NCBI GenBank assembly: GCA_049519475.1
Contig: JBEKQS010000002.1
Location: forward strand, 4,293-68,292
DNA from: Bryobacteraceae bacterium
Lineage (GTDB): Bacteria; Acidobacteriota; Terriglobia; Bryobacterales; Bryobacteraceae
DNA: 64,000 nt
Direction of reading: 5' to 3'
Position numbers and translations under genes: made by a program
The notes under the pieces: generated by a model
What the model was told of the DNA's origin: nothing
Database searches by the model: none
The model's input: the letters and a program-made list of their open reading frames with translations, nothing else
Part shown: in pieces, positions 9,003 to 43,743 of the stretch
Position numbering within the stretch: the stretch's first letter is position 1
Layout of the letters: each line of letters opens with the position of its first letter

Positions 9003-9007
9003 CTCAT

Positions 9008-9903: not shown

Positions 9904-9950
9904 AATCACGAATCCCCCATCCCCGCCGAAGAGTTAGGCAAAAGGATTTT

Positions 9951-10139: not shown

Positions 10140-10180
10140 CGCGCGCTCCCCTCGCCTGTCAATGTGGGTTTTGGAAAAGT

Positions 10181-11272: not shown

Positions 11273-11341
11273 GGCGTTGTCCTTATTCTACCGCGATCGG
11301 CCGGCCGCCATGCCGCCCGCGGCCGTGCGCGCCCTGCGCCT

Positions 11342-12460
11342 CTACTTGACCGCTACTACATCCATCGCGAAACCGGCGTCCATCGAGGGCACACCCTCCT
11401 CCGGCTCGAGCGAACCCGCCGGCGGCCGCGCGGCGTCGAAGAATTCCCCCCGCACCTTCCGCACCTGCTCCGCGATGCCCGATGACAGCGCATAGTACTG
11501 CGCGAACGCCACCCCCCGCGTGGATGCTCCGGCCTGCTCCAGCGATCTCTCCAGCCGCTCGAACGCCAGCCGCGCGTCCTTTTCCGCGAATCCAAACGAC
11601 ACCTGCGAGCCCGTCAGCACCACCTTCGACGCGCCCACCAACGCCACCTGCGATTGTCCCGCCTCTCGCGGCAGGCCTTCCGGGTTCAAAACCGCCAGTG
11701 GCGCACCCACCTCCCGGCGCAGTCGCGCCACGGCTTCGCATGCCGCCAGCGCCCTGGCCGGCGCCCGTCGCGTCTGCACGAAGTCCGCCGCCGCGCCCGG
11801 AAACTCCGCGGCAACCAGCTTCCGCGTCGCATCCAACCCGTCCAGCGAACTCAGAAAACACGTCACCCGCGCTACATCCGCGGGCTCCGAACCCGCCGCT
11901 TTCACCGCCACTCGCAGCGCCCCCAGCGATTTCACCGCCAGTGGCCCCACCGCGTCCAGCGGATTCTCCGACCACGCCGATTGCGCCGAGATCAGCGCCA
12001 GCCCATAGCGGCTCATCTCCTTCTTGCCCTCGGCGATTCCCTCCAGCACCACCTGCGCCCCTTCCAGCGGCAACCCTCCCGCCTGCACCAGGCTCAGTAC
12101 CGGCAACGCCTGCTTTCGCTCCGTGAAGACTTCGCTCACCAGGTCGCGTACCCGCCGCGCATCGCCCGAACCCGCCACAAACGCCCGGATTTTCAGAATC
12201 GAATCGCCCTTGGCTTGGTGGATCAGCGCGCTCAGCGCGTCGCGGACCTGCTTCGTCAGCAGGCCTTTGCCCGAGAGCGGCGTCACATGGAACGTGAACT
12301 TTCGCGGATCGCCTTCTACCGCCGTGGGAAGGTCCCTGGGCAGTTGTAACGTTTGGGTTTCGTCCTTTTTCTTTTGTGGAAACGCCAGAAGCCCCAGCCC
12401 GCACGCTAACGCGGCCAACTTCACCCCTTTTTTCGCGACGCGGCCGCGCTCAAACCGCAT
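11342..12460 (-). CDS. Lipoprotein with three tandem RidA/YjgF-like domains
   Basis: Start taken at the ATG at 12460, giving MRFERGRVAKKGVKLAALACG (lipobox ALAC). Three segments each end in a RidA-like strand pattern: ...KIRAFVAGSGDARRVRDLVSEVF...LEGAQVVLEGIA, then ...VARVTCFLSSLDGLDATRKLVAAEF...ALAACEAVARL, then ...AFAQYYALSSGIAEQVRKVRGEFF...AGFAMDVVAV. Confidence 0.7.
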   Translation of the reverse strand: MRFERGRVAKKGVKLAALACGLGLLAFPQKKKDETQTLQLPRDLPTAVEGDPRKFTFHVTPLSGKGLLTKQVRDALSALIHQAKGDSILKIRAFVAGSGDARRVRDLVSEVFTERKQALPVLSLVQAGGLPLEGAQVVLEGIAEGKKEMSRYGLALISAQSAWSENPLDAVGPLAVKSLGALRVAVKAAGSEPADVARVTCFLSSLDGLDATRKLVAAEFPGAAADFVQTRRAPARALAACEAVARLRREVGAPLAVLNPEGLPREAGQSQVALVGASKVVLTGSQVSFGFAEKDARLAFERLERSLEQAGASTRGVAFAQYYALSSGIAEQVRKVRGEFFDAARPPAGSLEPEEGVPSMDAGFAMDVVAVK

Positions 12461-21958: not shown

Positions 21959-22072
21959 GGATTCGTCGACAAGTCGTTGTTCCGGGCGCTCCATTACAGC
22001 CTGAACCAGCGCCAGTGGGATGCCGCGGCGGGTCATCTCCCATTCGGCATGGCGGGATAGGCGGAAGTCCAC
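21959..22072 (-). pseudogene. DUF4258 toxin gene, N-terminal 38 codons in inverted orientation
   Basis: The minus strand from GTG at 22072 reads VDFRLSRHAEWEMTRRGIPLALVQAVMERPEQRLVDES. This is the family N-terminus pattern (F S.HA...M..R.I....V..V...P). Beyond about 21950 the frame becomes Arg-rich antisense junk. Confidence 0.6.
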
Positions 22073-22073
22073 G

Positions 22074-22220
22074 GGCCGTTGGATTCACCAGTCGCGATTG
22101 CGGTTCGAAGATGGGAAAATGTATTTGTTGCGGGTCGCAGTGGCCGAAGAGGAACAGCCGCCTGTGATTATCACGGTTTACCGGACCAACAAGATTGAGA
22201 AGTACTGGAGCGCCGAATGA
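22074..22220 (+). pseudogene. DUF4258 toxin gene, C-terminal 48 codons (no usable N-terminus on this strand)
   Basis: GRWIHQSRLRFEDGKMYLLRVAVAEEEQPPVIITVYRTNKIEKYWSAE is the family C-terminus. There is an ATGA overlap with the downstream DUF2283 gene. Confidence 0.6.
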
Positions 22221-22432
22221 AAGTCGTGTACGACCCCGAAGTGGACTCGCTCAGTGTCCTGCTGAGCAATGCGCCAGTCGCCGAAAGCGATCAGGATAAG
22301 CCCGGCGTCATCCTGGACTACGACGCCGGCGGCAACATGGTGAGCTTCGAGATTCTCGATGCTTCGAAGCGCATGGCGAATCCCATGTCCGTCGAGTACG
22401 CCGTCACGCCGCCACTACGCCGGCCGGCATGA
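22217..22432 (+). CDS. DUF2283 family protein (putative antitoxin partner of DUF4258)
   Basis: MKVVYDPEVDSLSVLLSNAPVAESDQDKPGVILDYDAGGNMVSFEILDASKRM is a typical DUF2283 sequence. Confidence 0.78.
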   Translation: MKVVYDPEVDSLSVLLSNAPVAESDQDKPGVILDYDAGGNMVSFEILDASKRMANPMSVEYAVTPPLRRPA

Positions 22433-22519: not shown

Positions 22520-22558
22520 ACATCGACCGTTCTTGTCGATGTTGGCGCCGCAGGCGCC
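22519..22558. terminator. Hairpins between convergent DUF2283 and sigma-54 activator genes
   Basis: AACATCGAC-cgttctt-GTCGATGTT (9-bp stem) followed by GGCGCC-gca-GGCGCC. Confidence 0.5.
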
Positions 22559-23901
22559 TATCTCAAGTTGAATTTCTTCATCTTGTAGCGCAGCGTATCG
22601 CGCGTGATGCGCAGCAACCGCGCCGCCTGCGTCTGGTTGCCGTTGGTTTTTTCGAGCGCCCGCGCCAGCAGGTTGCGTTCGTTGTCTTCGAGCGAAAGCC
22701 CATCCGTGGGAAGGTCCGTCCTCGCCGGAACCGGCAAGACCGTGCCGGATTCGGGACGCGAAATCGCAATCGGCAGGCTGGCCGGCGTGATCAGCGCCGA
22801 CTCCTCCAGGATCATGGCCCGCTCGATGGCGTTGCGCAACTCGCGCACGTTGCCCGGCCAGTCGTGCCCCGTCAGGAGCCTGGCCGCCGCCTCGTTCAAC
22901 CCTTCGATGTTCCGCTTGAATTTGTGGTTGTAGTGCTCGACGAAAAACTTCGTCAGCGGCACGATGTCCTCGACGCGATCCCTGAGCGGCGGGATGAGAA
23001 TCTGGATCACGTTGAGCCGGAAATACAGATCCTGCCGGAAAGCCCCTTCCTTCACCGCTTCCCGCAGGTTCTTGTTGGTGGCCGCCACCACCCGCAGATC
23101 CAGTTTGATGTCTTTCAAGCCACCCAGCCGCCGGAAAGTCTGCTCCTCCAGCACCCGCAGCAGCTTGGCCTGCAACATCAGCGGGATCTCGCCGATCTCG
23201 TCCAGGAACAGCGTGCCCTTGTCGGCCAGTTCGAAAATGCCCCGTTTTTGCGACCGCGCATCCGTGAACGCACCCTTTTCATACCCGAACAGTTCGCTCT
23301 CCAGAAGCGAATCGGGAATGGCCGCGCAGTTGATCGCGATGAACGGCTCGGCCTGGCGCACGCTCTGGTAATGCAGCGTCTTGGCGATCAGGTCCTTTCC
23401 CGTCCCATTTTCGCCTTCCAGCAGAATCGTGGTGGCTTCGCTGGCCGCCACCCGCCGCACGAAATTCAGTACCTCCCGCATGGGCGGCGATTCGGCGATC
23501 ACTTCCCGCTTCTGGGGCGCCGCCTCGTCGGTGATGTCTTTGATGGTGGCCACCACTCCGCTGAGGTTGCCGGCATCGTCGAACATCTGCGTAGTGCGCA
23601 TCACGACCAGCCGTTCCATGCCGTTGGCGGTGTGCAACCGCACCGTGGAATGAGGCGCGGCGGGTGCCTGGTTCAGCCCCACCAGAACGCCGCAACCGGG
23701 CTCGCAGAGCTCGCACTTAAAAATATCCTGGCAGTGCTTCCCCAGCATTTCTTCCGAGGAAACGCCAAACAACCTCTCCGCCGAGCGGTTGACGCCGGTA
23801 ATCCGAAACTCCGGATCATAAAGGACAAGCGCGTCCGAAAGCTGGTCAAACACGGATTCGAGCACGCTGGTCTTCTGCCAGCCTGGGATGAGCTTAGACA
23901 T
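22558..23901 (-). CDS. Sigma-54-dependent transcriptional activator, PAS-AAA+-HTH (no receiver domain)
   Basis: N-terminal PAS (LSDALVLYDPEFRITGVNRSAERLFG...). AAA+ domain with GENGTGKDLIAKTLH, the GAFTDA loop and ELFGYEKGAF. C-terminal Fis-type HTH (NGNQTQAARLLRITRDTLRYKMKKF). Confidence 0.92.
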   Translation of the reverse strand: MSKLIPGWQKTSVLESVFDQLSDALVLYDPEFRITGVNRSAERLFGVSSEEMLGKHCQDIFKCELCEPGCGVLVGLNQAPAAPHSTVRLHTANGMERLVVMRTTQMFDDAGNLSGVVATIKDITDEAAPQKREVIAESPPMREVLNFVRRVAASEATTILLEGENGTGKDLIAKTLHYQSVRQAEPFIAINCAAIPDSLLESELFGYEKGAFTDARSQKRGIFELADKGTLFLDEIGEIPLMLQAKLLRVLEEQTFRRLGGLKDIKLDLRVVAATNKNLREAVKEGAFRQDLYFRLNVIQILIPPLRDRVEDIVPLTKFFVEHYNHKFKRNIEGLNEAAARLLTGHDWPGNVRELRNAIERAMILEESALITPASLPIAISRPESGTVLPVPARTDLPTDGLSLEDNERNLLARALEKTNGNQTQAARLLRITRDTLRYKMKKFNLR

Positions 23902-24034
23902 TCACAGTACGTACATAAGATTATATCAGCGGCTTGGGGGAATTGGCCCATCATGCCGCTATTTCGGGGGGAATGCCCCCATCCGGGTGGTGGATATTCC
24001 TTCAAACCTGCTGCTGTGTTTGGAGATACATACA

Positions 24035-24050
24035 TGGTGATGCAATTGCT
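24035..24050 (+). promoter_or_regulatory. Sigma-54-like -24/-12 motif upstream of the small cytochrome c gene
   Basis: TGGTGATGCAATTGCT has GG and TTGC in the correct register. The predicted start is about 24061, just before GGAGG (24063-24067) and the ATG at 24072. The -24 half is weak. Confidence 0.35.
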
Positions 24051-24071
24051 GTCTTGCCGGGTGGAGGCATC

Positions 24072-24302
24072 ATGTCCCATTGGAAAATTGCTTTGCCCGC
24101 TGTCATCCTGCTGGGCGGTTTCCTGGTTTGCTCCACGGCCTCGTATGGCAAGCCGGAATACGCGAAGACTACTAAGAAAGCTTGCACTTACTGTCATGAG
24201 AAGACCGTCGCTGATAAGGACGCCATGAACAAGAACTTGACCGACGCCGGCAAGTATTACGCCAAGAACAAGTCCCTGGACGGCTACGTCGAGAAAAAGT
24301 AA
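24072..24302 (+). CDS. Small secreted monoheme c-type cytochrome (76 aa)
   Basis: Internal ATG preceded by GGAGG. Signal peptide MSHWKIALPAVILLGGFLVCSTASYG. A single CTYCH heme-binding motif. Confidence 0.72.
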   Translation: MSHWKIALPAVILLGGFLVCSTASYGKPEYAKTTKKACTYCHEKTVADKDAMNKNLTDAGKYYAKNKSLDGYVEKK

Positions 24303-24335
24303 CAGCCGATGGAAGGCGGAGGCGTGGAGTCGTGC

Positions 24336-24782
24336 ATGATGCAAACGGTTCAGCTTTCGATTGCTGATGGCCAATACGCCGCAACGGTTCGGGACGCCCT
24401 GACCCATAGCTGCGCCTGGCACATCCAGCCCGTCGATCGCCCGGACCTCTCGCAGCATTGTGTGATGGTTCTGGACGAACAGTCGTTCAGGCGGCTGCCC
24501 CTCCCCCTCTCCAACCCTGAGCGGGTTGTCTTGATCACCCGTCACGATCTGCAAGATCCTCAGTTCCTTGCTCAGGCTTGGGAAGCCGGGATTGTTTCGG
24601 TTGTCTCGGAGCAAGATCCCCTGAGTACCGTTCTGCTCGCCATCATGGCTGCTGCCTTGCGCATCGCAAAACCCCACAGTTCGGAGGTCGCTAGCGAAAT
24701 AACCCACACAATCAGTGCAGAATCTGCGTCAATAGCCCCACTTCATCGGCATTGCGGCCCAAAACGTTGCAAAACACCATAG
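24336..24782 (+). CDS. Stand-alone degenerate receiver (REC-like) domain protein
   Basis: MMQTVQLSIADGQ... / VMVLDEQS / VVLITRHD / GIVSVVSEQ parallels the CheY-fold beta1/beta3/beta4/beta5 signatures, but the acidic pocket and the conserved Lys are not canonical. The start could be 24309. Confidence 0.55.
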   Translation: MMQTVQLSIADGQYAATVRDALTHSCAWHIQPVDRPDLSQHCVMVLDEQSFRRLPLPLSNPERVVLITRHDLQDPQFLAQAWEAGIVSVVSEQDPLSTVLLAIMAAALRIAKPHSSEVASEITHTISAESASIAPLHRHCGPKRCKTP

Positions 24783-24784
24783 TT

Positions 24785-24816
24785 TGGTTTGCCGCTTGCT
24801 TGGACTTCGGCGTGCA
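24785..24816 (+). promoter_or_regulatory. Two overlapping-register sigma-54-like motifs upstream of the Cys-rich gene
   Basis: TGGTTTGCCGCTTGCT (24785-24800) and TGGACTTCGGCGTGCA (24801-24816). Both have GG/GC spaced as in the consensus. They lie 34-65 nt upstream of the ATG at 24850. Confidence 0.35.
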
Positions 24817-24849
24817 TTGCTCTTTGTTCAGGCGAAAGGAGATTCAGAT

Positions 24850-25257
24850 ATGGATCGCTCATTAGCAGAACTCGAAGCCCTGGTCCGCAACCGGATCTGC
24901 AGCGTTTGTACCGAACGTACCGTAGAGGGTCAGTGCGGCCTGGAAGAACCCTCCAGTTGCGCCCTGTTCCGCCTCTTTCCCCAAGTGGCCCAAGCCATCC
25001 AGTCTGTCCGGAGCGACGATATCGAGCAGTACATCGAAGCCATTCGCCGCAGCGTCTGCTCGGTTTGCGCCGAGCAGGCTCACGACGGCTCCTGCGAAAC
25101 CCGCCAGCAGGTCCGTTGCGCACTGGATGCCTACTTGCTTTTGGTTGTGGATGCCATCGAGGAAGCCACCGGGAAGACTTTCGATAAACGCGGCTTGGGC
25201 GGTGGAGGTAACGGAATCACCGCCGGCCCAAAGGCCGCAAATTCAACTGTGATATGA
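24850..25257 (+). CDS. Cytoplasmic protein with duplicated C-x2-C-x8-C-x7-C motif (135 aa)
   Basis: AGGAG lies 9 nt upstream. Repeat 1 is ICSVCTERTVEGQCGLEEPSSCALF and repeat 2 is VCSVCAEQAHDGSCETRQQVRCALD. No signal peptide. Confidence 0.7.
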   Translation: MDRSLAELEALVRNRICSVCTERTVEGQCGLEEPSSCALFRLFPQVAQAIQSVRSDDIEQYIEAIRRSVCSVCAEQAHDGSCETRQQVRCALDAYLLLVVDAIEEATGKTFDKRGLGGGGNGITAGPKAANSTVI

Positions 25258-25289
25258 ACTATCTGTAGTCTGAGTCTGGAGATGATCTT

Positions 25290-25568
25290 ATGAATATCAG
25301 TTTGCTTCCGTTCCTGTATTTCTGGATCGTTCTGGCCCTCGCCGTTTTAGGATTGCTGGTGTGGCGCAAGGTTGTTGCGAGCCATGAAGACGATACCCTG
25401 CACGTGCTTGATGGCGGCGGCGCCGATCAAACCGTGGTTGCCCACAAGCTCGATCAGATCGACAAGTGGGGCAAAATCCTCACCGTGATCGCCTTGGTTT
25501 ACGGTGTCATCCTGGGCGCTGCCTACGCGTATCAGGCCTGGATTCAGACATCCCAAACGGGAGTGTAA
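25290..25568 (+). CDS. Small two-TM membrane protein (92 aa)
   Basis: GGAG RBS. Helices LLPFLYFWIVLALAVLGLLVW and ILTVIALVYGVILGAAYAY. Confidence 0.6.
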   Translation: MNISLLPFLYFWIVLALAVLGLLVWRKVVASHEDDTLHVLDGGGADQTVVAHKLDQIDKWGKILTVIALVYGVILGAAYAYQAWIQTSQTGV

Positions 25569-25573
25569 TTGTC

Positions 25574-27241
25574 ATGAAGAACCGGGCACTTCGAACCATC
25601 AGCCGAGCGCTCGGTTCTGCCCTTTTCGGCCTCGTGCTCGCCCTGGCCGGTGTCAATGCCTCTGCGGCGGACAAGCCCGCTGCGGACTGCGCTTCGTGCC
25701 ACGACCAGGCCCAGAAGCTCGAAAAAAGCGCCCACGCCGGGCTGCCCTGCGACACCTGCCACGAATCCCACGACCAGTATCCTCACCCCGCCAACATCCC
25801 CAAACCCCAGTGCATTACCTGCCACCAGGAGCAGGCTGGCGACTATGCCCTCGGCGTTCACGGCATGGCCCGCAAAAACGGCAATGAAGGCGCCCCCGAT
25901 TGCGCTATGTGCCACGGCAGCGCCCACGAGCTGCTGTTCCCGCAGTCCACGGAGTTTCGCAAGGCTGTGCCGGACACCTGCGGCATGTGCCACAGCGAAG
26001 TCGCCGACCAGTACCGCACCAGCGTGCATGGCCAGGCTCTCGCCCGGGGTGTCACGCAGGCGCCCATCTGCAACGATTGCCACGGCGAGCACAAGATCCT
26101 CAAGCCCGGCAACGCCGCCTCCACCGTCAACGCCGCGCACATTCGCGATACCTGCGGCAGTTGCCACGGGAACGTGCGGCTGTCGCGTGAGTTCGGCCTG
26201 CCATCGGACCGCGTAGTGAGCTTCGACGCGTCTTACCACGGCCTGGCCGACAAGGCCGGCTCCCAAACCGTCGCCAACTGCTCGAGTTGCCACGGTGTGC
26301 ACGACATCCTGCCGTCATCGGATCCCAAGTCGACCGTTAATCCGAAGAACCTGCCCAAGACTTGTGGGCAGTGCCACGCCGGCGCCGGTACCCGTTTCGC
26401 CATCAGCCAGGTGCATCTGACCGAAAAATCCGAAACCGCGGCCCTGCGCTGGGTGCGCCAGTTCTACCTGCTGCTGATCCCCGTCACCATCGGTCTCATG
26501 ATGCTTCACCAGGGCGGCGATTGGATCCGCAAGCTGATCAAACTGCGCTTTCAAGCCCGGATTGCGCAACCCAGCCGGATGGGCGCAGCCGGCCACGGCG
26601 AGCTTCGCATGTTGCCCTTCGAACGCGTCCAGCACGCCGTCATGGCACTCTCGTTCCTCACTCTGATCTGGACCGGCTTCGCCCTGAAATACCCCGACAC
26701 CTGGTGGGCGCGCCCCCTGCTGATGTTGGAAGGCAAGTACGCCGTGCGCAGCCTGATCCATCGCATCGCGGCCGCGGTATTCACGGCCGTCACCGTCACG
26801 CACCTGGTTTCGCTGATCGTCAGCCGCAAACTGCGCCATCACTGGAAAGAGATGCTGCCCAAAATGGATGATCCGCGCGAGGCCCTCGCAGGCTTTGCCT
26901 ACAACCTCGGCTTGGGTTCCGAGCCGCCGTTCCGTTCGCCGCACAGTTACCTCGAGAAGGCCGAATACTGGGCCGTGGTCTGGGGCGCGGTCGTCATGAT
27001 TGCTTCCGGGATTTTTCTTTGGGCCAATACCCTGGTCATGAAATTCCTGCCCAAGAGCTGGCTCGACGTCGCTACATCGGTTCATCTGTTCGAGGCCATC
27101 CTCGCCACCCTGGCGATCGTGGTATGGCACTTCTATTCCGTCATCTTCGATCCCGACGTCTACCCGCTCAACACAGCTTTCCTGACTGGGTATAGTGTAA
27201 AAAAGAAGGAGCGCGAGCCGGTGAAGACCGCGGGAGACTGA
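25574..27241 (+). CDS. Nine-heme c-type cytochrome fused to a multi-TM b-type-cytochrome-like membrane domain (CbcL-like architecture)
   Basis: Internal ATG at 25574 and a signal peptide. Nine CxxCH sites (CASCH, CDTCH, CITCH, CAMCH, CGMCH, CNDCH, CGSCH, CSSCH, CGQCH). Then 5 predicted TM helices with conserved His (RVQHAVMA, LIHRIAAA, SVHLFEAILATLAIVVWH). Confidence 0.85.
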   Translation: MKNRALRTISRALGSALFGLVLALAGVNASAADKPAADCASCHDQAQKLEKSAHAGLPCDTCHESHDQYPHPANIPKPQCITCHQEQAGDYALGVHGMARKNGNEGAPDCAMCHGSAHELLFPQSTEFRKAVPDTCGMCHSEVADQYRTSVHGQALARGVTQAPICNDCHGEHKILKPGNAASTVNAAHIRDTCGSCHGNVRLSREFGLPSDRVVSFDASYHGLADKAGSQTVANCSSCHGVHDILPSSDPKSTVNPKNLPKTCGQCHAGAGTRFAISQVHLTEKSETAALRWVRQFYLLLIPVTIGLMMLHQGGDWIRKLIKLRFQARIAQPSRMGAAGHGELRMLPFERVQHAVMALSFLTLIWTGFALKYPDTWWARPLLMLEGKYAVRSLIHRIAAAVFTAVTVTHLVSLIVSRKLRHHWKEMLPKMDDPREALAGFAYNLGLGSEPPFRSPHSYLEKAEYWAVVWGAVVMIASGIFLWANTLVMKFLPKSWLDVATSVHLFEAILATLAIVVWHFYSVIFDPDVYPLNTAFLTGYSVKKKEREPVKTAGD

Positions 27242-27251
27242 TACCCACAGC

Positions 27252-28709
27252 ATGACACCCAATCCATCCGAAACAAGCCGCCGGGGCTGGTTGTCCCCGT
27301 TCGTCTACCTGTCAAACAACTGGATCAGCCTCGCCGGCGTGGTCGTCGTGACCACCACCGTAGTCTTCTGGCTCTTCTTGCTGCCCGTGACCCTGAAGGG
27401 CGAAGCTACCAGCCCCTACATCGGCATCCTGGTATTTCTAGGCCTGCCGGCGCCTTTCTTCGCGGGCCTGATCATGATCCCCCTGGGGATCTGGCTCAAA
27501 CGCAGGCGCGAAGGCATCAGCGGCATCTACCCGCCGGATTTTCCACCCCTCACCTGGCACAGTTTCGAACTCCGCAAGCTGGTCTACTTCTTCGGCGCCG
27601 CCACAGTCGTCAACCTCGCCATCGCCAGCCAGGTCAGCTACGGCGCGGTCAATTACATGGATTCCGTGACCTTCTGCGGCGAGACCTGCCACACCGTCAT
27701 GCAGCCCGAATTCACCGCCTACGGGAATTCTCCGCATTCCCGCGTGGAATGCGTGAAGTGCCACATCGGCCCCGGCGCGGGCTGGTTCGTGAAAAGCAAA
27801 CTCTCCGGCGTGGGCCAGGTATTCGCCGTCACCTTCCACACTTATCCCGAGCCTATCCCGACCCCGGTCACCAACCTGCGTCCCGCCCGCGAAACCTGCG
27901 AGCAATGCCACTGGCCGCAAAAGTATGGCGAAGACCGCCTGACAGTCATCTCCAAGTACGCCGACGACGAAACCAACACCTCTACCAAGACCGTCCTGCT
28001 GATGAAGATCGGCGGCGGCAACCACGGCATCGGCATTCACGGAACCCACTTGGGCGTCGGCGTCACCATCCGTTACGGCCATTCCGACGAAGCCCGCCAG
28101 ACCATTCCCTGGGTGGAATACGAAAACAACGGCAAGATAACCGACTACCTCGCCCCCAACGCCAAGCCGGATGGCGCTGGTCTTAACAAACGCACCATGG
28201 ATTGCATGGATTGCCACAACCGCCCCGCCCACAGCTACGACCTCCCCGACCGCGCCGTGGATAAAGCCATGCACGACGGCCTGATCTCCGCCTCGCTCCC
28301 CTTCGCCATGAAGAAAGCCGTTGAAATCCTCAAAGCGCCCTACGTGTCGCGGGAAGAAGCCGACCAGAAGATCCCCGCCGCATTCGCCCAGTTTTATCAG
28401 CAGACCTACCCCGCCATCTGGAGCGGCCGCCAGCCGGAAGTCGCACAGTCCGCCAAAGAACTGGCAGCCATCTATGACCGCAACATCTTCCCCGAAATGA
28501 AGGTCAACTGGGGCACCTACCCCATTAATATCGGCCACACCGATTTCCCCGGCTGTTTCCGTTGCCACGACGGCTCGCACGCCCCCAAGACCGGAGACGC
28601 CATCACCCAGGACTGCAACGCCTGCCACAACATCCTGGCCATGGATGAAGCCAACCCGAAGGTGCTCACGGACCTCGGTATTGTAGAAAGCAAGTCCGCC
28701 CAAAAGTAG
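27252..28709 (+). CDS. Three-TM NapC/NirT-type multiheme cytochrome (ImcH-like architecture)
   Basis: Three N-terminal TM helices. Then FCGETCH (CX3CH), CVKCH, CEQCH, CMDCH, CFRCH and CNACH. The block SVTFCGETCHTVMQPEFTAYGNSPHSRVECVKCH resembles the NapC/NirT N-terminal region. Confidence 0.82.
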   Translation: MTPNPSETSRRGWLSPFVYLSNNWISLAGVVVVTTTVVFWLFLLPVTLKGEATSPYIGILVFLGLPAPFFAGLIMIPLGIWLKRRREGISGIYPPDFPPLTWHSFELRKLVYFFGAATVVNLAIASQVSYGAVNYMDSVTFCGETCHTVMQPEFTAYGNSPHSRVECVKCHIGPGAGWFVKSKLSGVGQVFAVTFHTYPEPIPTPVTNLRPARETCEQCHWPQKYGEDRLTVISKYADDETNTSTKTVLLMKIGGGNHGIGIHGTHLGVGVTIRYGHSDEARQTIPWVEYENNGKITDYLAPNAKPDGAGLNKRTMDCMDCHNRPAHSYDLPDRAVDKAMHDGLISASLPFAMKKAVEILKAPYVSREEADQKIPAAFAQFYQQTYPAIWSGRQPEVAQSAKELAAIYDRNIFPEMKVNWGTYPINIGHTDFPGCFRCHDGSHAPKTGDAITQDCNACHNILAMDEANPKVLTDLGIVESKSAQK

Positions 28710-28754
28710 CCGGTGGGGCGAGCTTCAGCCAGCCGGGCGAAGCCCGGTTGGTGG

Positions 28755-28782
28755 CACAGGCACTCTTGCCTGTGTTGGTTTT
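28755..28782 (+). terminator. Intrinsic terminator-like hairpin after the NapC/NirT-type gene
   Basis: CACAGGCA-ctct-TGCCTGTG (8-bp perfect stem) followed by TTGGTTTT. Confidence 0.55.
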
Positions 28783-28855
28783 GACGTTTTCACGTGGAAC
28801 ATGGGCTGGTTCAAGCCTGCCCTGCTGAAATTTTCAACAACAGGGTTCCCGCATG

Positions 28856-28884
28856 TTGACGGAAAATCCTACAGATGTTATACA
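28856..28884 (+). promoter_or_regulatory. Sigma-70-like promoter candidate for the 19-heme gene
   Basis: TTGACG-N17-TATACA within a locally AT-rich stretch, 25-37 nt upstream of the candidate ATGs. Confidence 0.4.
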
Positions 28885-28908
28885 GATAATAAGGTCTTCA
28901 TTTCTGTT

Positions 28909-31743
28909 ATGGTTCACCGAATGGCCATTCTGCGGCGCCTGCTGGTAGCAGCCGGACTTCTGGCCGCAGCCCTCCCGGCGCAGCAGTCCAAGCCGCTTCC
29001 CGGCTCCGACGATTGTCTCGGCTGTCATGAAACCGGGGTCCGTGCGGGCAAACGGCAGCCCGGCGTCCCTCCGCCATTCGACGCCGCCGCCCTCAGAGCT
29101 TCCCCGCACGCCGACCTGGAATGCGCCGCCTGCCACGCCGAGCTCGCCAAGAAAGAATTCCCCCATCCCGAAAAGCTGGCCAAAGTGGACTGCGGCACGT
29201 GCCACCCCGACGAGCAGACCCAATACACCGCCAGCCTCCACGGGAAGGCGTCAGCGCGCGGCGACAGCACCGCGCCCGGCTGCAAGACCTGCCATGGCAC
29301 GCACAACATCCTGCTCCCGTCGAACCCCAACTCCCGCACCTCCACCATGCAGATCCCCGGCCTCTGCGGCAGTTGCCACCAGCAAGGCACCGACGTCAGC
29401 AAGACCCACGACATCCCGCAGACCAACATCCTGGGAAACTACACCGACAGTCTCCACGGCCAGGCGCTCTTCACCAAGGGCCTCACCGTCGCCGCCGTCT
29501 GCACCAGTTGCCACACCGCGCACTTCGTGCTGCCGCACACCGACCCGCGCTCGTCCATCTCCAAAGGGAAAATCGCCGAGACCTGCAGGAAGTGCCACGG
29601 ACAGATTGAAGCCGTGCACCGCAAAGTGATCAACGGCCAGCTCTGGGAGTCCGCGCCGAACATGATTCCGGCCTGCGTGGATTGCCACGAGCCGCACAAA
29701 GTGCGGCAGTTCTCCTACACCGAGGGCATGGCGGACAAAGACTGCCAGAGCTGCCACGCCAATCCCAACCTCAAGGTGACCCGCGGCTCGAGGACCGTCT
29801 CGCTGTTCGTCGATAAAGCCGAGATGGACACCTCCATCCACCATAACCCGCCCAGCCACCCCGACACGCCCGTGGCTTGCGTGCAGTGCCATACCGGTGG
29901 CACGCCGTCGCACAAACGGCCTTGCGATACCATGCCGGCGAAGGTCGATTGTTCGATCTGCCACCCGACGCAGGTCAACGACTATCGCGAGAGCACCCAC
30001 GGCACGCTGGCGGCCCAAGGCAGCCATGACGCTCCTACCTGCCAGGATTGCCACAGCCCGCACCACACCCTGGCCAAGAACGACTCGGCGTCGCCGACCT
30101 TCTCGCGCAACGTCCCCGCGCTCTGCGCCCAGTGCCACCAGACCGGCCACAAAGCCGCCCTGCGGTACACCGGCAAGCAAACCAACATCATCGAGAACTA
30201 CACCGAGAGCATCCACGGCAAAGGCCTGCTGCAATCCGGGCTGACCGTCACTGCGGCCTGCACAGCCTGCCACACCGCGCACCGCGAGCTACCCGCCAGC
30301 GACCCGCGCTCCAGCGTCTACCGCTCCAACATCGCCGCTACGTGTGCCCAATGCCATCGCGGCATCTACGAACAATTCACTTCCAGCGTGCACAGCCCAA
30401 CCGTCACCAAGACCAACAAAGAGCTCCCCGTCTGCGCGGATTGCCACTCGGCCCACAGCATCGAACGCACCGACAGCAGTGATTTCCGGCTGAACATCAT
30501 GAACCAGTGCGGCCGCTGCCATCAGCAGATTACCGAAGCTTACTTCGAAACCTTCCACGGCAAGGCTTCCAATCTGGGCGGCCTGAAGACCGCCAAGTGC
30601 TACGACTGCCACGGCTCGCACGACATCCTGCCGGTCACCGACCCGCGCTCCCGCCTCAGCCGCGCCAACATCGTCAACACCTGTGGCAAGTGCCACATGG
30701 GCTCGCACCGCCAGTTCGCCGGATACCTCACCCACGCCACCCACCACGACCCGCAAAAATATCCGTTCCTCTTCTACACCTTCTGGGGCATGACCACCCT
30801 GCTCGTAGGCACGCTTGTAATCTCCGGCACGCACACGCTGGCCTGGCTCCCGCGCTCGCTCCAATACCGCAAATTAGCCCGCAGCGGCCACGACAAAAAC
30901 GGCCTTTACGTGCGCCGCTTCCGCCCGCTTCATCGCAACCTGCACCTGATGGTGATCTCGAGCTTCCTCGGCCTGGCCCTCACCGGCATGACTCTCAAGT
31001 TCTCCTACGCCCCCTGGGCCAAAAAGATCGCTTGGCTGCTGGGAGGCTTCGAATCCGCCAGAGGCTTCGAAGCCGCCGGCCTGATCCACCGTTTCTGCGC
31101 CATCCTCACCTTCACTTATTTCGGCCTGCACCTCTACGACCTGGTGAAGGAGCACCACAAGAGCGGCAAATCCTGGCTGAAGTACATCACCAGTTCCGAG
31201 GGCATGCTGCTTAACGGCCGCGACTGGCGCGAATTCATCGGCTCCATGAAATGGTTCCTGGGCCGCGGCGAGCGTCCCCAATATGGCCGCTGGACCTATT
31301 GGGAAAAATTTGATTACTTCGCCGTTTTTTGGGGCGTGGCCATCATCGGCGGCACCGGCCTGATGCTCTGGTTCCCCGAAGCTTTCACGCGCATCTTCCC
31401 CGGCTGGATGGTGAACGTCGCAACCACCATCCACAGCGACGAAGCCCTGCTGGCGGTCAGTTTCATCTTCGTGATTCACTTCTTCAACACGCACTTCCGC
31501 CCCGAAAAGTTCCCCATCGACACGGTAATTTTCACCACCGGCATGCCGCTCGAAGAATTCAAGCGCGACCGTCCGCGCGAGTACCAGGAGATGGTGGACG
31601 CCGGCAAGTTGGAAGAAAACCTGATGCCCGCCCCGCCCGAGCGTTCGCAACGCTTCTGGCGCCGTCTGGGCTTCACCGCGCTGGGCCTGGGCATGGTGAT
31701 GATCGGGCTGATCCTGTACGCCATGATCTTTGCGTACCGGTAG
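28909..31743 (+). CDS. Nineteen-heme c-type cytochrome fused to a b-type-cytochrome-like membrane domain
   Basis: Starts at ATG 28909 or 28921 (MAILRRLLVAAGLLAAALPAQQ signal). Nineteen CxxCH motifs counted by eye. The C-terminal roughly 330 aa has about 5-6 TM helices with conserved His (RPLHRNLHLMV, LIHRFCAIL, TIHSDEALLAVSFIFVIH). Confidence 0.85.
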   Translation: MVHRMAILRRLLVAAGLLAAALPAQQSKPLPGSDDCLGCHETGVRAGKRQPGVPPPFDAAALRASPHADLECAACHAELAKKEFPHPEKLAKVDCGTCHPDEQTQYTASLHGKASARGDSTAPGCKTCHGTHNILLPSNPNSRTSTMQIPGLCGSCHQQGTDVSKTHDIPQTNILGNYTDSLHGQALFTKGLTVAAVCTSCHTAHFVLPHTDPRSSISKGKIAETCRKCHGQIEAVHRKVINGQLWESAPNMIPACVDCHEPHKVRQFSYTEGMADKDCQSCHANPNLKVTRGSRTVSLFVDKAEMDTSIHHNPPSHPDTPVACVQCHTGGTPSHKRPCDTMPAKVDCSICHPTQVNDYRESTHGTLAAQGSHDAPTCQDCHSPHHTLAKNDSASPTFSRNVPALCAQCHQTGHKAALRYTGKQTNIIENYTESIHGKGLLQSGLTVTAACTACHTAHRELPASDPRSSVYRSNIAATCAQCHRGIYEQFTSSVHSPTVTKTNKELPVCADCHSAHSIERTDSSDFRLNIMNQCGRCHQQITEAYFETFHGKASNLGGLKTAKCYDCHGSHDILPVTDPRSRLSRANIVNTCGKCHMGSHRQFAGYLTHATHHDPQKYPFLFYTFWGMTTLLVGTLVISGTHTLAWLPRSLQYRKLARSGHDKNGLYVRRFRPLHRNLHLMVISSFLGLALTGMTLKFSYAPWAKKIAWLLGGFESARGFEAAGLIHRFCAILTFTYFGLHLYDLVKEHHKSGKSWLKYITSSEGMLLNGRDWREFIGSMKWFLGRGERPQYGRWTYWEKFDYFAVFWGVAIIGGTGLMLWFPEAFTRIFPGWMVNVATTIHSDEALLAVSFIFVIHFFNTHFRPEKFPIDTVIFTTGMPLEEFKRDRPREYQEMVDAGKLEENLMPAPPERSQRFWRRLGFTALGLGMVMIGLILYAMIFAYR

Positions 31744-31838
31744 ACTGGCCGTTGGGGGGCGCCCAATCCTGGCCGCAGCCGTCTTTTCATGCGTTCCTTT
31801 GCCTTGCCGATCTGTATCAATCGTATATACTGATGCAT

Positions 31839-32048
31839 ATGAGCGCTACGCGGACCACTCTGAATCTCGACGACGAACTGCTCCGCGTGGCCCGCCAATA
31901 CACCGGCATTCAGGAAAAGACAGCCCTTATCCACGAAGCCTTGCGGGAGTTGGTTTCAAGAGAAGCAGCCCGCCGCCTGTCTGCTCTTGGCGGGACGATG
32001 CCCAATTTCGACGCGGGACGCCGGCGCAAGTCCGGCAAAGCGCGATGA
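31839..32048 (+). CDS. vapB: Type II antitoxin, VapB family (DUF2191/RHH-like)
   Basis: MSATRTTLNLDDELLRVARQYTGIQEKTALIHEALRELVSREAARRL. ATGA overlap with the PIN gene. Confidence 0.8.
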   Translation: MSATRTTLNLDDELLRVARQYTGIQEKTALIHEALRELVSREAARRLSALGGTMPNFDAGRRRKSGKAR

Positions 32049-32404
32049 TTCTGGTCGACACTTCCGTCTGGATCAATCACTTCCGGAAGAGCGATGTGGG
32101 CCTCGCGCAATTGCTCGCCGACGGCTCCGCCGGTGTGCACCCATTCATCGTTGGTGAACTGGCTTGCGGGAACCTCAAGAACCGTGTCGCTACGCTCGGC
32201 GATCTGGCCAGGTTGCCTCAAACGCCTATCGCCAGCGAAACTGAGGTCCGCCATCTGTTGGAATCGAGCCGTCTGTGGGGTAAGGGCTTGGGCTGGATCG
32301 ATCTACACCTGCTGGCCGCAGCCAGGCTCTCGGGATGGGGCTTCTTCACTGCCGACCGCGCCTTGATGCACGCGGCTGCCGCGATCGGCATTGCCGCGCC
32401 GTAA
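32045..32404 (+). CDS. vapC: Type II toxin, VapC PIN-domain ribonuclease
   Basis: MILVDTSVWINHFRK...HPFIVGELACG...WIDLHLLAAARL...FFTADRAL shows the PIN acidic-residue pattern. Confidence 0.82.
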   Translation: MILVDTSVWINHFRKSDVGLAQLLADGSAGVHPFIVGELACGNLKNRVATLGDLARLPQTPIASETEVRHLLESSRLWGKGLGWIDLHLLAAARLSGWGFFTADRALMHAAAAIGIAAP

Positions 32405-36747: not shown

Positions 36748-38568
36748 ATGACCCTCCAGGCCAAGCTGACGCTCGGTACGGTGTTGCTGGTCACCATGGT
36801 CGTGGCCCTCATTTCCTTCGTCGACCTGGTCGGCATCATGCAGAATGAGTTTGAGCACACCCTGCAGCGCGCCAACGTGGTTCAGTTGGTCGCCACCGAT
36901 GACGTCAAACAGGCCCTCAACCGCCCGCAGGCGCTGCCCTTCCCCGGCGCGCTCAAGACCCCCGAGCTCTTCGACCGCCTGCGTAGCGTGATGGCCTCCT
37001 CGCCGGTAATCGTCGAAGTGGCCGTCGTCAACCCGGATGGCGAAATCCTCGCCGACAGCTTACCTGACAGCCAAGGCAAGACCTGCCCACACTATCCCGA
37101 TCTCGCTCACCTGGTCAATCAGCAAGGCTGGTTCGACAAGCTGCGCGTACTGCTGGGCCGCGCCGCCGGCGACCTCCAAATCGAGCAGGAATTGGGGCCG
37201 CCGAAGCTCTTTGTGCACGTCATCGTGGCTCCCGCCTTGATTCGCGATGCCATCAAGCCGAATCTGAATCAGAGCGCCGACATCGCGCTCATCTCCATCA
37301 TCGGCGCCATCTGCATCACGTTCCTGTTTTCGGCCTTCGCCTTCCGCCCGCTGGGCCGCCTGCGCCGCCAGCTCGACCTCCTCGCATCCGGCGACTACGC
37401 GCCGCCCGAACCGGCCACCGGCTCTCGCTCGAACGACGAAGTCTCCATCATGGCCTCCAAGGTCAGCCTCCTGGGCGAGCGCCTGCGCGGCGCGCAATTC
37501 GAAGTCTCCGACCTGCGCGGCAACATGGACCGGCTGCTGCGCGATCTGGAAGACGCCGTCTTCATCTTCAACCGCGAACGCCGCCTGGTCTTTGCTTCCG
37601 GCTCGGTCGACAGATTTCCCGGCCGCGACCGCTCCACTCTCTCCGGCCAATCCATCGCCGAAATCTTCCCGCCTTCCACCAACCTGGGCCTTCTCATCGA
37701 CGAAGCCGCCTCGACCGGCGTCCACATCAGCAACCGCCGCATCCCGCTCACCGCCGCGCCAGAGAGCGCTTCCGTGCTTCTCTCCGTCGACCTCCTGGAA
37801 GCGCAGCCCGGCGCGGCCAACCCGCGCGCCGGCCTCATCGTCCGCCTGCGCGATCCCGAAGCGCAACGCCAGATCGGCCGCCAGCTCCAGACCGCCGACC
37901 GCCTGGCCGCCATCAGCCGCATCTCCGGCGGCGTCGCCCATGAAGTCAAGAATCCGCTGAACGCCATCCTCCTCCACGTGGAAGTCGCCCGCTCCAAACT
38001 CGCGCGCGGCGATACCGCCGTCGACGCCCAAATGGAGATCATCTCCCGCGAAATCCTGCGCCTCGACCGCGTGGTCAAGACCTTCCTCGATTTCACCCGC
38101 CCCGTGGAGCTCAAACTGCGCCCGGTTCTTCTGCAACAAATCCTCGGCGAAATCGTCTCGCTCGCGCGCCCCCAGGCCGCCGCCGCCAACATCCAGGTGG
38201 TGGCCGCGCCGGAAGCCTCGGCCGCCGACGGTGTTGAAGTCAGCGTCGATAGCGACCTCTTCAAACAGGCCGTCCTCAACGTGGTCGTGAACGCCATCCA
38301 GGCCATGCCCGAAGGCGGCGAACTGCGCTTCGAAGCCTCCGCTTCCCAGGACACTGCCGAAATCCGCATCTCCGATACCGGCCCTGGCATTCCGCCCGAC
38401 CTGAAGGAAAAAATCTTCCGCCTGTACTTCACCACCAAGACCGGCGGAAGCGGCATCGGCCTCGCCATGACTTTCCGGATCGTGCAATTACACGATGGTA
38501 CAATCGACTTCAGCAGCGAACCGGGCAAAGGCACTACTTTTGTGATCCGTCTGCCGCTTGCGGTGTGA
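36748..38568 (+). CDS. Sensor histidine kinase (2 TM, HAMP, PAS, HisKA, HATPase; NtrB/AtoS-like H-box)
   Basis: H-box SGGVAHEVKNPLNAI, N-box VVNAIQAMPEGG, G-boxes DTGPGIP and GSGIGLAM. No response regulator is adjacent. Confidence 0.9.
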   Translation: MTLQAKLTLGTVLLVTMVVALISFVDLVGIMQNEFEHTLQRANVVQLVATDDVKQALNRPQALPFPGALKTPELFDRLRSVMASSPVIVEVAVVNPDGEILADSLPDSQGKTCPHYPDLAHLVNQQGWFDKLRVLLGRAAGDLQIEQELGPPKLFVHVIVAPALIRDAIKPNLNQSADIALISIIGAICITFLFSAFAFRPLGRLRRQLDLLASGDYAPPEPATGSRSNDEVSIMASKVSLLGERLRGAQFEVSDLRGNMDRLLRDLEDAVFIFNRERRLVFASGSVDRFPGRDRSTLSGQSIAEIFPPSTNLGLLIDEAASTGVHISNRRIPLTAAPESASVLLSVDLLEAQPGAANPRAGLIVRLRDPEAQRQIGRQLQTADRLAAISRISGGVAHEVKNPLNAILLHVEVARSKLARGDTAVDAQMEIISREILRLDRVVKTFLDFTRPVELKLRPVLLQQILGEIVSLARPQAAAANIQVVAAPEASAADGVEVSVDSDLFKQAVLNVVVNAIQAMPEGGELRFEASASQDTAEIRISDTGPGIPPDLKEKIFRLYFTTKTGGSGIGLAMTFRIVQLHDGTIDFSSEPGKGTTFVIRLPLAV

Positions 38569-42426: not shown

Positions 42427-43743
42427 TTGAATCCGTCTCGCGCATTGTTCACCCTGGTTTTGGTCCTGCCCGCTTTCGGCCAGTACGCCGGCCCCGCCAT
42501 CCTCTCGCGCGGCGACGCCCCAGCCGCCATGGAAGCGCCCCAAATCAGATTCCAACCCTTCCTGTCGGTCAGCGCCTCCTATACCACGGGTCTTTCCGGC
42601 GTCACCGTCGATCCGCAGGGCAACCTCGCCAACGCCAGTGCTTATGGAGTCACGATCTCGGGCGGCATTAGCGGATCCCATAGTTGGCGGCATACCCATA
42701 TCGGCCTCGACTACCACGGCAGCTACATGTTCTATCCCGGCGACTCCCACTACAACTCGCTCAACCAGGCACTGGGTTTCGGTCTCTCTCACCAGGTCAC
42801 CCGCCACATCAAGTTCAGCCTGCGGCAAGCCCTCGGCTGGTTCTCATTCAACAATCCGAACGTTGGGCTCACCCAAACCGTGCCCTTCGATCCCTCCCAA
42901 AGCGGCATCCCCAACAGCGACTTCTACTACACCCGCACGATTTATTCGTCGACCCAGGCCGACCTGGTCATTCAAAAATCCTCGCGCCTCTCCTTCGATC
43001 TAGGCGGCGGTCTCTTCATCAACCGCTACGCCTCTACGGCGCTGTATGGAGTTACCGGCGAAGACGCCACGGGCGATCTCCAATACCGGCTCTCCCGGCG
43101 AGCCACGATTGGGGCCAGCTATTCCTTCACCCACTACTCCTTCACCGGCATCCTCTCCTCGAGCGACATTCACGGCGCCGCCCTCACCTACGCGGTGCGC
43201 ATCTCCCGCACGGTGGAGTTTTCCGGTTACGCCGGATTCATGCACGCCGAAACCAAATTCATCCAGAGCGTGCCGGTCGATCCCAACGTGACCGCCCTGC
43301 TCGGTATCACCAGCACCACCGCGCTGGCTTATCACGTCAACTGGGTTCCCAATTTTTCCGGGCGGCTGTCCAAAACCTTTGCCCGCGGGGTGGTCTATGC
43401 CGCCGGTGGAGAAACCGTCAGCCCCGGCAACGGTATTTTTCTCACATCCCGCACCGATAGCCTCACGGGCGGATACGGATACACCGGCCTGCGCCGCTGG
43501 AGCCTGGGAGTGGCCGCCGCGTACACTTCCGCCCTTTCCATCGGCAACGTGACTGGAAATTATGGCGGCATCAACGGCTCGTTCAGCATGAGCCGCTCGC
43601 TCGGCCACTCCCTCAGTTTTGTCACCAGCTACATGGCCACCCAATACCGCAGCAGCAACTTCACCCGCTACAATCGCTTGATCTACACCGGGTCGGTCGG
43701 CGTCGGCTGGTCCCCGGGCGACATCCCCTTGCGTATCTGGTAG
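42427..43743 (+). CDS. Outer-membrane beta-barrel protein (hypothetical)
   Basis: TTG start with a GGAGGA RBS and a signal peptide (LFTLVLVLPAFGQ). Alternating beta-strand pattern throughout. C-terminus is ...GDIPLRIW (terminal aromatic). Confidence 0.72.
   Translation: MNPSRALFTLVLVLPAFGQYAGPAILSRGDAPAAMEAPQIRFQPFLSVSASYTTGLSGVTVDPQGNLANASAYGVTISGGISGSHSWRHTHIGLDYHGSYMFYPGDSHYNSLNQALGFGLSHQVTRHIKFSLRQALGWFSFNNPNVGLTQTVPFDPSQSGIPNSDFYYTRTIYSSTQADLVIQKSSRLSFDLGGGLFINRYASTALYGVTGEDATGDLQYRLSRRATIGASYSFTHYSFTGILSSSDIHGAALTYAVRISRTVEFSGYAGFMHAETKFIQSVPVDPNVTALLGITSTTALAYHVNWVPNFSGRLSKTFARGVVYAAGGETVSPGNGIFLTSRTDSLTGGYGYTGLRRWSLGVAAAYTSALSIGNVTGNYGGINGSFSMSRSLGHSLSFVTSYMATQYRSSNFTRYNRLIYTGSVGVGWSPGDIPLRIW

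Follow-up and report, generated by a model that had tools for sequence, protein, structure and literature searches.

The question raised by the locus described here is whether multiheme cytochromes of the inner membrane whose genes adjoin each other and a divergent sigma-54 activator, with no recognisable reductase among them, belong to one pathway, and where that pathway would lead. The locus lies within 64,000 nucleotides (nt) of DNA from Bryobacteraceae bacterium (GCA_049519475.1, contig JBEKQS010000002.1, positions 4,293–68,292, forward strand); this whole stretch is called the window, and positions given below are those of the window. A sequence-only reading of the window had proposed a self-contained module of electron export, with seven genes (g1–g7) behind one dedicated regulator, and had been unable to match it to a described system. 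We consider it probable that g1–g6 form one sigma-54-dependent operon and, jointly with this, that the operon is a regulated system for electron export from quinol to the periplasm, the inner-membrane entry of a multiheme chain; redox tuning of such a module is suggested by analogy with Geobacter.

The open reading frame (ORF) listing, motif counts and domain searches agree with the gene inventory from which that reading had started, a PAS/AAA+/HTH sigma-54 activator on the minus strand, divergent from seven co-directional genes on the plus strand; the coordinates hold, with several starts lying downstream of the longest-ORF start. Heme motifs were recounted over g1–g7 as 34 CxxCH plus 1 CxxxCH, the same total of 35, and no further ORF across the 64 kb carries more than one such motif. 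The gaps between genes from g1 to g6 measure 5–67 nt. A database protein from a Bryobacteraceae metagenome-assembled genome (MAG) is 100% identical to g6 across 97% of its length, so the guess of an acidobacterial origin was correct.

Gene g6 (27252–28709, plus strand) is assigned to the ImcH type. Three transmembrane (TM) helices are indicated by hydropathy (residues 30–48, 57–75 and 110–128); the CxxxCH motif (CGETCH, 142–147) stands right after the third, followed by five CxxCH motifs (at 167, 216, 318, 435 and 455), and an N-terminal NapC/NirT-like region covers the third helix and the first hemes (PF03264, residues 116–198, 34.2 bits with a cut-off of 24.1; the NrfH model gave E 8e-13, under its own cut-off). 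ImcH homologues have been defined by three N-terminal TM helices, an atypical CX3CH motif by the membrane domain and 5–9 CX2CH motifs (Zhong & Shi 2018, PMC6295460), and g6 fits this definition. The published homologue Acid_0432 of Solibacter usitatus (TM helices 20–42, 57–79 and 110–132; motifs at 142, 166, 215, 317, 434 and 454; PMC6295460) has its motifs at positions equal to those of g6 within one residue. For ImcH of Geobacter sulfurreducens (GSU3259), which likewise has the CxxxCH motif right after TM helix 3 and the NapC/NirT-like region, the spacings of motifs 1–6 are 24, 49, 106, 117 and 20, as compared with 25, 49, 102, 117 and 20 in g6, the GSU3259 values being motif spacings from a published table. 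More than 8000 relatives of g6 are present in protein databases, and no solved structure related by sequence to g6 or to g5 was found.

The two cytochromes on either side of g6 are fusions of a periplasmic multiheme c-type domain with a b-type membrane domain (c::b fusions), here assigned through PF01292 and through motif and TM architecture, as no CbcL-specific Pfam or NCBIfam model exists. Gene g5 (25574–27241, plus strand) encodes a CbcL/MtoC/MtrH-type fusion with a signal peptide, a periplasmic domain with 9 CxxCH motifs and a 5-TM b-type domain; g7 (28909–31743, plus strand) encodes a CbcL-family paralogue of 944 aa with a signal peptide, 19 CxxCH motifs, a b-type domain and an extra C-terminal TM helix, so that six helices are predicted for g7 and five for g5, in which the sixth, C-terminal one is missing. 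The Ni_hydr_CYTB model (PF01292) scored 57.1 bits for g5 and 31.8 bits for g7 (cut-off 30.1). Both proteins thus share with the CbcL/MtoC/MtrH family the signal peptide, the periplasmic multiheme domain, the C-terminal HydC/FdnI-like PF01292 domain and conserved histidines. The conserved histidines that had been noticed in the TM helices of the two fusions proved to be six, invariant in 52 aligned c::b fusions from related loci (312, 354, 396, 410, 504 and 519 in g5; the same six in g7), in difference from the three conserved histidines reported for the family. H396/H410 in TM3 and H504/H519 in TM5 are pairs placed 14–15 residues apart inside single helices, the pattern expected for transmembrane bis-histidine ligation of two b hemes, and would point to heme b binding.

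Compared with CbcL of G. sulfurreducens (GSU0274), g5 has the same number of hemes and the same spacing of the last five motifs, and its first TM helix follows the last motif at a matching distance, as judged by the motif and TM spacings of a published table. The family at large spans 3–23 hemes and 416–1034 aa, usually with 6 TM helices, and includes a 931-aa, 19-heme, 6-TM homologue from Solibacteraceae bacterium SbA3 (PMC6295460), which has the architecture of g7 and nearly equal motif spacing. In g7 the 19-heme domain is an internal duplication, its two halves sharing 39% identity (E 6.5e-47); each half shares ~31–35% with the g5 c domain, and between the b domains of g5 and g7 identity is 30%. 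Some 1000 representatives of the g7 family were found at E <= 1e-30, and only ~5 clusters at 50% identity in a representative library of 1.84 billion proteins cover most or all of its length. The family set and this locus differ further in that two paralogues here lie side by side, next to imcH.

How g1–g6 would be controlled is indicated by the activator and by its intergenic region. The activator (447 aa; 22558–23901, minus strand) is a sigma-54 enhancer-binding protein in which Pfam models recognise PAS, Sigma54_activat, AAA lid and HTH_8 domains (PF00158, E 2.5e-69; the Fis-type HTH of HTH_8, E 7.5e-16); its GAFTGA-type loop reads GAFTDA (residue 209). Four cysteines of the PAS domain (C57, C63, C66 and C70; CX5CX2CX3C) are invariant across 19 orthologues, which suggests a sensor based on a metal, an Fe-S cluster or thiols, for redox state or for O2; on account of these cysteines the activator probably senses redox state, O2 or a metal. 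A divergent orthologue of the activator was found at ~20 of the related loci described below.

Phylogenetic footprinting of 14 orthologous activator–g1 intergenic regions recovered a -24/-12 promoter of the sigma-54 type, TGGTGATGCAATTGCT (24035–24050, plus strand; GG at 24036–37, GC at 24048–49, with the GG–GC spacing correct for sigma-54), which ends 21 nt before the start codon of g1, with a Shine-Dalgarno sequence, GGAGG, just downstream at 24063–67. The motif TGG.GATGCAATTGC, in full TGG(C/T)G(A/C)TGCAATTGC(T/A), is kept in 14 of 14 aligned regions while its flanks diverge. A consensus scan had missed the site because its -24 half has three mismatches; the same generic scan (TGGCAC-N5-TTGCW, 2 mismatches) gave 28 matches in the window against 31 expected and was set aside as unenriched. 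A further candidate, the string TGGCAC...TTGC in the g6–g7 spacer, was rejected as a sigma-54 site for its wrong spacing and because it is an arm of a hairpin. A conserved palindrome, TGGGGGAATTGGCCCA (23935–23950), the sole occurrence of its type within the window, precedes the -24/-12 element by about 100 bp; the block around it, TG.G..AATTGGCCCA, is shared by the 14 regions, and the palindrome is a plausible binding site of the activator. A second inverted repeat, GGGGGGAATGCCCCC (23966–23980), is partly conserved in the alignment of 14 loci and may also have a regulatory role.

The claim that one regulator governs all seven genes stands for g1–g6, on the conserved -24/-12 element, and falls for g7, because hairpins, a promoter-like site of its own, a toxin-antitoxin pair and its absence in relatives set g7 apart. 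The hairpin that had been noticed after g6 consists of two strong tandem hairpins with a T-rich tail (28728–28795, plus strand; hairpins at 28728–28752 and 28753–28776), resembling a terminator at the end of a g1–g6 operon; the RNA fold has a free energy of -42.9 kcal/mol (z -3.41), and a consensus terminator scan did not call it. A sigma-70-like promoter candidate for g7, TTGACG-17 nt-TATACA (28856–28884, plus strand), was found by eye and fails the rule of a consensus scan at its last base; it is kept as TTGACG-17-TATAAA in L002, the sole close relative with g7, in a spacer that otherwise diverges. In three other close relatives (L001, L003 and L005) g7 is absent and a rhodanese gene and murA come directly after imcH. 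Right after g7 in the window follows a vapB–vapC toxin-antitoxin pair (31833–32404, plus strand; Pfam VapB_antitoxin and PIN; 4-nt overlap), and relative to genomes with rhodanese after imcH, g7 and vapBC together are an insertion of ~3.7 kb. On these comparisons of gene order, g7 is an accessory, separately promoted and strain-variable paralogue, and vapBC is the far edge of its insertion, outside the respiratory module.

The four small genes ahead of g5 belong to the same conserved unit. The first, g1 (24072–24302, plus strand), encodes a small secreted monoheme cytochrome c, a 76-aa precursor with a signal peptide, a CTYCH motif and a Lys-rich mature part of ~50 aa (~45–50 aa in its family). 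Members of the g1 family flank imcH in 20 loci, in some on both sides (one copy on each side of the imcH gene, at 10001, in L065, L072, L080 and L061); as a candidate sixth heme ligand, many members have a histidine in 'H.HSL', and the subgroup of the window has a methionine in a short insertion. The second, g2 (24309–24782, plus strand), had been read as a degenerate stand-alone receiver. No Pfam, NCBIfam or PDB profile matched it, and an hhalign comparison with CheY gave a probability of 0.2%, so that a receiver finds no support at the level of sequence; its AlphaFold2 model is a (beta-alpha)5 fold (pLDDT 85–90 over residues 1–110, with a disordered C-terminal tail) that matches the receiver domains of FixJ, StyR, DesR, DctD and NtrC1 (Foldseek probability 1.0, E ~1e-4). 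Hence g2 is receiver-like by fold only, and at that level the earlier name of a degenerate receiver is fair; Asp11 and Asp47 are invariant, Asp47 ending beta3, and the conserved lysine after beta5 is missing. About 1470 database homologues were found, nearly all unnamed or 'hypothetical' in their source and none with a Pfam domain.

The third, g3 (24850–25257, plus strand), is a cytoplasmic protein with two CxxC-x8-C-x7-C repeats whose eight cysteines are invariant, and it probably binds a metal or an Fe-S cluster. Its ~1320 database homologues also are nearly all unnamed or 'hypothetical' and have no Pfam domain; a PDB profile search gave chance-level matches only, and the AlphaFold2 model is of low confidence (pLDDT 55). 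A relation between g3 and another small Cys-rich family (cluster c11) was considered and rejected (hhalign probability 1.4%, no homology). That family comprises conserved ~125-aa cytoplasmic proteins with four invariant cysteines and no Pfam match, encoded ~0.7 kb upstream of imcH in loci of the Terriglobales type (L044, L045, L047, L055, L067, L075 and others), mostly on the opposite strand and divergent from the cytochrome c–imcH genes. The fourth, g4 (25290–25568, plus strand), is a 92-aa peptide with two TM helices by hydropathy, conserved immediately upstream of cbcL in loci with the gene order of the window. As uncharacterised families, g2, g3 and g4 are singled out as candidate accessory factors. 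Third-position GC of g1, g2 and g3 (23934–25257) is 0.62–0.65, as against ~0.8 in the cytochrome genes and most of the window, and the lowest-GC stretch is at 24–26 kb (0.577).

Whether the arrangement is more than local was examined in a scan for relatives of g6 with one genome per species, which gave at least 583 matching stretches, of which the best 80 loci were kept; neighbouring genes were clustered from 1297 ORFs of these 80 loci, two metagenome loci and the window, and 59 loci with at least 3 kb on either side of imcH were taken as complete. Nearly all of the 80 loci kept come from Acidobacteriota (Bryobacterales, Terriglobales, 'Acidoferrales', Sulfotelmatobacter and Holophagaceae). 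An intact c::b fusion adjoins imcH in 38 of the 59 complete loci, and the fusions adjacent to imcH have 9 (20 proteins), 13 (21) or 19 hemes (3). Two layouts were distinguished. Layout A, that of the window, is found in ~20 loci, mostly of Bryobacterales, and reads activator, g1, g2, g3, g4, cbcL, imcH; layout B, in other orders, reads class I cytochrome c, imcH and a CbcL-type gene for 13 or 19 hemes, often accompanied by another such gene. The order of g1–g6, their tight spacing and the promoter are kept down to ~55–60% ImcH identity, and the trio of 9-heme fusion, 19-heme fusion and ImcH turns up again in different arrangements; in L036 and L021, cbcL and imcH enclose the 19-heme gene.

What lies next to the cluster in its relatives bears on where electrons would go. 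Neither nrfA, hao nor a molybdopterin-type or other conventional reductase family recurs among the 82 loci, so the tie to nrfA, hao, ttr or psr that would have given the cluster another meaning is not seen; a minority of loci is tied to outer-membrane conduits instead. Decahemes of the OmcA/MtrC family (526 and 544 bits, cut-off 209) and of the MtrA/DmsE family (262 bits, cut-off 192) stand beside the cluster in relatives, and in six loci the MtrA-type gene adjoins a 650–970-aa protein with no Pfam match and a C-terminus often ending in ..YAF, which is read as a putative outer-membrane barrel. In one locus of layout A (L011) a barrel gene and an OmcA/MtrC-type gene abut the activator. In a Bryobacterales MAG (L034), a tight co-directional array (3856–11374) runs MtrA/DmsE-like gene, barrel (687 aa), 4-heme class I cytochrome c, g1-like gene, cbcL and imcH; this block looks like a candidate for a complete pathway from inner to outer membrane. 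A second array (L028, 4502–11374) is the same from the barrel (785 aa) on, with no MtrA-like gene called upstream.

In the first of these two arrays (L034:8273–11374) the CbcL-type and ImcH-type genes are read as a single 1033-aa ORF with 14 CxxCH motifs, and in the second (L028) cbcL and imcH overlap by 20 nt in different frames. The long ORF may be a natural fusion, in which case direct cooperation of the two proteins would be favoured, or it may be due to an indel of long-read assembly.

Because conduit genes accompany the cluster in a minority of relatives and no tie to nrfA, hao, ttr or psr appears, g1–g6 are read as the inner-membrane end of a longer pathway. That two of the cytochromes are of the ImcH and CbcL types and come from an acidobacterial genome, as the sequence-only reading had held, is borne out by the family fingerprints and the Bryobacteraceae MAG match; that the module is self-contained is not, since in relatives the imcH/cbcL pair stands beside MtrA/DmsE- and OmcA/MtrC-family decahemes and a putative barrel. 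Its outer parts are probably elsewhere in the genome or absent, and self-containment is unlikely.

As proposed, quinol would be oxidised by the ImcH-type g6 at a periplasm-facing site near the CxxxCH heme, and by the CbcL-type g5 through a diheme-b-like membrane domain that would pass electrons to the 9-heme c domain. Both dehydrogenases would deliver to periplasmic carriers, the tiny monoheme g1 being a candidate carrier, and electrons would go onward to outer-membrane conduits, Mtr-type or porin-cytochrome, or to other periplasmic acceptors encoded elsewhere. The divergent activator would turn on the expression of g1–g6; g2 and g3 would probably act in activator signalling or in assembly; and g7 would add a second b-type quinol site bearing a 19-heme chain. 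We infer heme b binding, quinol oxidation, the direction of electron flow, the acceptor and the sensed signal from sequence patterns and from analogy with characterised proteins. In Geobacter, ImcH oxidises a menaquinol analogue and reduces periplasmic PpcA, its quinol oxidation being electroneutral, and extracellular acceptors that differ in potential require CbcL or ImcH accordingly. The electron-export reading is in keeping with Fe(III) reduction by Paludibaculum fermentans, which is a cultured species of the same order.

Several points weigh against this proposal. The gene map of the 64 kb bears out the earlier statement that the window has no catalytic reductase, porin or outer-membrane cytochrome: no reductase, further multiheme protein, outer-membrane cytochrome or recognisable porin was found on it. 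Among the complete loci an MtrA, MtrC or barrel gene lies within 10 kb of imcH in only 12 of 59. The Geobacter protein GSU3259 has seven hemes and g6 six, the C-terminal seventh being missing, as in the Solibacter and Geothrix fermentans homologues. In the groups with the cluster, many of the cultured members are described as aerobes, which leaves an extracellular acceptor uncertain. At many loci imcH also has class I cytochromes c and Rieske/cytochrome b genes nearby, and these would fit a general respiratory role as well. CbcL/MtoC/MtrH homologues are also present in Fe(II) oxidisers (PMC6295460), and electrons could accordingly move in either direction. For the acidobacterial homologues, finally, an electron-export role, which we hold to be probable, is drawn from gene content, architecture and synteny.

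Some of the same points feed the main rival explanation, which we regard as possible though unlikely, namely that the cluster is a CymA-like periplasmic hub or a bypass of the bc1 complex, in which electrons would pass from quinol to soluble cytochromes c and on to periplasmic reductases or low-oxygen oxidases, with no extracellular acceptor. The most constant neighbours of imcH are indeed small monohemes (the g1 family in 20 loci; a class I Cytochrome_CBB3-type protein of 113 aa in 34), Rieske/cytochrome b genes are adjacent in 8 of the 59 complete loci, most loci, the window included, have no outer-membrane components nearby, promiscuous hubs such as CymA belong to the NapC/NirT family, and a Cys-rich PAS activator would suit O2 sensing. 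Against it, none of the gene families recurring among the 82 loci is that of an oxidase or a periplasmic reductase; the putative barrels, found in pairs with MtrA-type decahemes, are the sole recurring structural genes other than cytochromes; and Geobacter ImcH showed no interaction with the high-potential monoheme PccH. In several loci of layout B (L059:6156–8953, L049, L018, L072, L080 and L077) a recurrent three-gene unit by imcH consists of a Rieske protein, a cytochrome b (PF00033) and a 9-heme cytochrome of ~420 aa that is akin to the c domain of CbcL; the unit resembles a bc-type complex whose c subunit is multiheme.

Reverse operation, with electrons taken up from a donor outside the cell or in the periplasm, for example Fe(II), and quinone reduced by CbcL/MtoC-type proteins, we regard as improbable: it would agree with the occurrence of CbcL/MtoC/MtrH homologues in Fe(II)-oxidising bacteria, in a family where oxidising and reducing members are not separable by any sequence feature (PMC6295460), but the recurring partners in the present loci are OmcA/MtrC-family cytochromes, typical of reducers, and the cultured relative of known phenotype reduces Fe(III). 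That the genes are merely neighbours, independent cytochrome genes with no shared function and with g7 recently inserted, can nearly be dismissed, for although g7 is variable, follows hairpins, has its own promoter-like site and stands beside vapBC, the order, spacing and promoter of g1–g6 persist over a wide range of ImcH identity, the pairing of imcH with a c::b fusion recurs in the rearranged layout of other orders, and the 9-heme/19-heme/ImcH trio recurs as well.

The locus is in part comparable to known systems. In G. sulfurreducens, imcH (GSU3259) and cbcL (GSU0274) are unlinked, as the earlier reading had it, and constitutively expressed, whereas g6 and a cbcL-type gene here share an operon headed by a sigma-54 promoter. 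A close parallel in regulatory design is the third system of that species, the cbcBA operon (GSU0597–0593), induced through the divergent sigma-54 activator BccR (GSU0598), its induction being tied to redox conditions. Common to both are the divergent activator and the -24/-12 promoter, an operon that opens with small hypothetical proteins (two in cbcBA) and one resembling a response regulator, and an end formed by b- and c-type inner-membrane quinol-oxidoreductase cytochromes; the input domain of BccR is a receiver, whereas that of the window's activator is a PAS domain with four cysteines, and separate CbcB and CbcA there correspond to a CbcL-type fusion plus ImcH here. In Rhodoferax ferrireducens, the cymA-cymA-mtrH genes with mtrABC likewise encode more than one kind of quinol dehydrogenase together. 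Mtr-type clusters resemble the relatives of this locus in having MtrA/DmsE- and OmcA/MtrC-family decahemes and a barrel alongside, and differ in that the pairing here is of the ImcH and CbcL types and that outer-membrane genes are absent from the window. A 2018 survey found no mtrAB or mtoAB genes next to imcH (PMC6295460). In the present set, porin-cytochrome or Mtr-type conduit genes are lacking from the 64 kb and lie beside homologous clusters in the same 12 complete loci.

The earlier view that nothing described matches the locus can therefore not be kept in full. As Acid_0432 and the SbA3 homologue are already catalogued (PMC6295460), neither the ImcH-type protein nor the 19-heme fusion is unprecedented, and the literature already covers the protein families and their occurrence in Acidobacteria, as well as the 19-heme variant and the control by sigma-54 of an operon for bc-type cytochromes of extracellular electron transfer. 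In the searchable literature no description of an imcH–cbcL operon in Acidobacteria was found, a search for the Solibacter locus tags Acid_0430–0433 returned nothing, and matches for 'imch' with Acidobacteriota were mostly metagenome surveys with no evident link to the locus. Four aspects do not seem to have been described: the operonic coupling of imcH with a cbcL-type gene, which recurs in the Acidobacteriota at large; the Cys-PAS activator and the promoter and palindrome that go with it; the three accessory families g2–g4; and the linkage of imcH to MtrA-type and barrel genes, contrary to the 2018 survey (PMC6295460).

Around the locus, the flanking ORFs scanned are housekeeping genes, and the gene map of the 64 kb shows flagellar genes, murA, murQ, an ATP synthase operon, peptidases, a transporter and a histidine kinase; a 438-aa ORF at 42427–43743 has no Pfam match, and no Rfam families or tRNAs were found in the window. 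A PAS histidine kinase is encoded at 36748–38568, ~5 kb downstream, and is syntenic in L001; the operon itself has no kinase. Between conserved upstream genes and the activator, two small overlapping ORFs (22020–22432; one of 66 aa with no Pfam match, one a 71-aa DUF2283 protein) have no room at the matching position in the close relative L002 and may be an inserted small pair. The sequence TGGCCCCTGGCTTGCA (4254–4269) has one mismatch to the sigma-54 consensus and lies ~15 nt upstream of an ORF (4284–5015) that by appearance resembles a flagellar rod gene; the window may thus have a second promoter that depends on RpoN.

ImcH, CbcL and CbcBA are among the best metagenomic markers of extracellular electron transfer, and the choice between them is an open question in Geobacter; Acidobacteriota couple two of these types physically, and in Bryobacterales the ImcH/CbcL pair is placed under a dedicated, probably redox-sensing sigma-54 activator. 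The locus is therefore a natural system for asking whether two quinol oxidases pair, which signal controls them and whether common soil Acidobacteriota contribute to the reduction of iron and humics. As a speculation to which we give rather low credence, the ImcH plus CbcL operon might be an ancestral, phylum-wide 'dual-gate' of the acidobacterial quinol pool, with the Cys-PAS activator, g2, g3 and g1 as its parts. If so, the potential-dependent division of labour of Geobacter would be hard-wired here as one regulated unit, and a large share of the abundant soil Acidobacteriota, often cultured aerobically, would be latent respirers of metals, humics or electrodes. In strains with g7, the 19-heme chain, anchored on a quinol-oxidising b domain, might span much of the periplasm with no need of soluble carriers.

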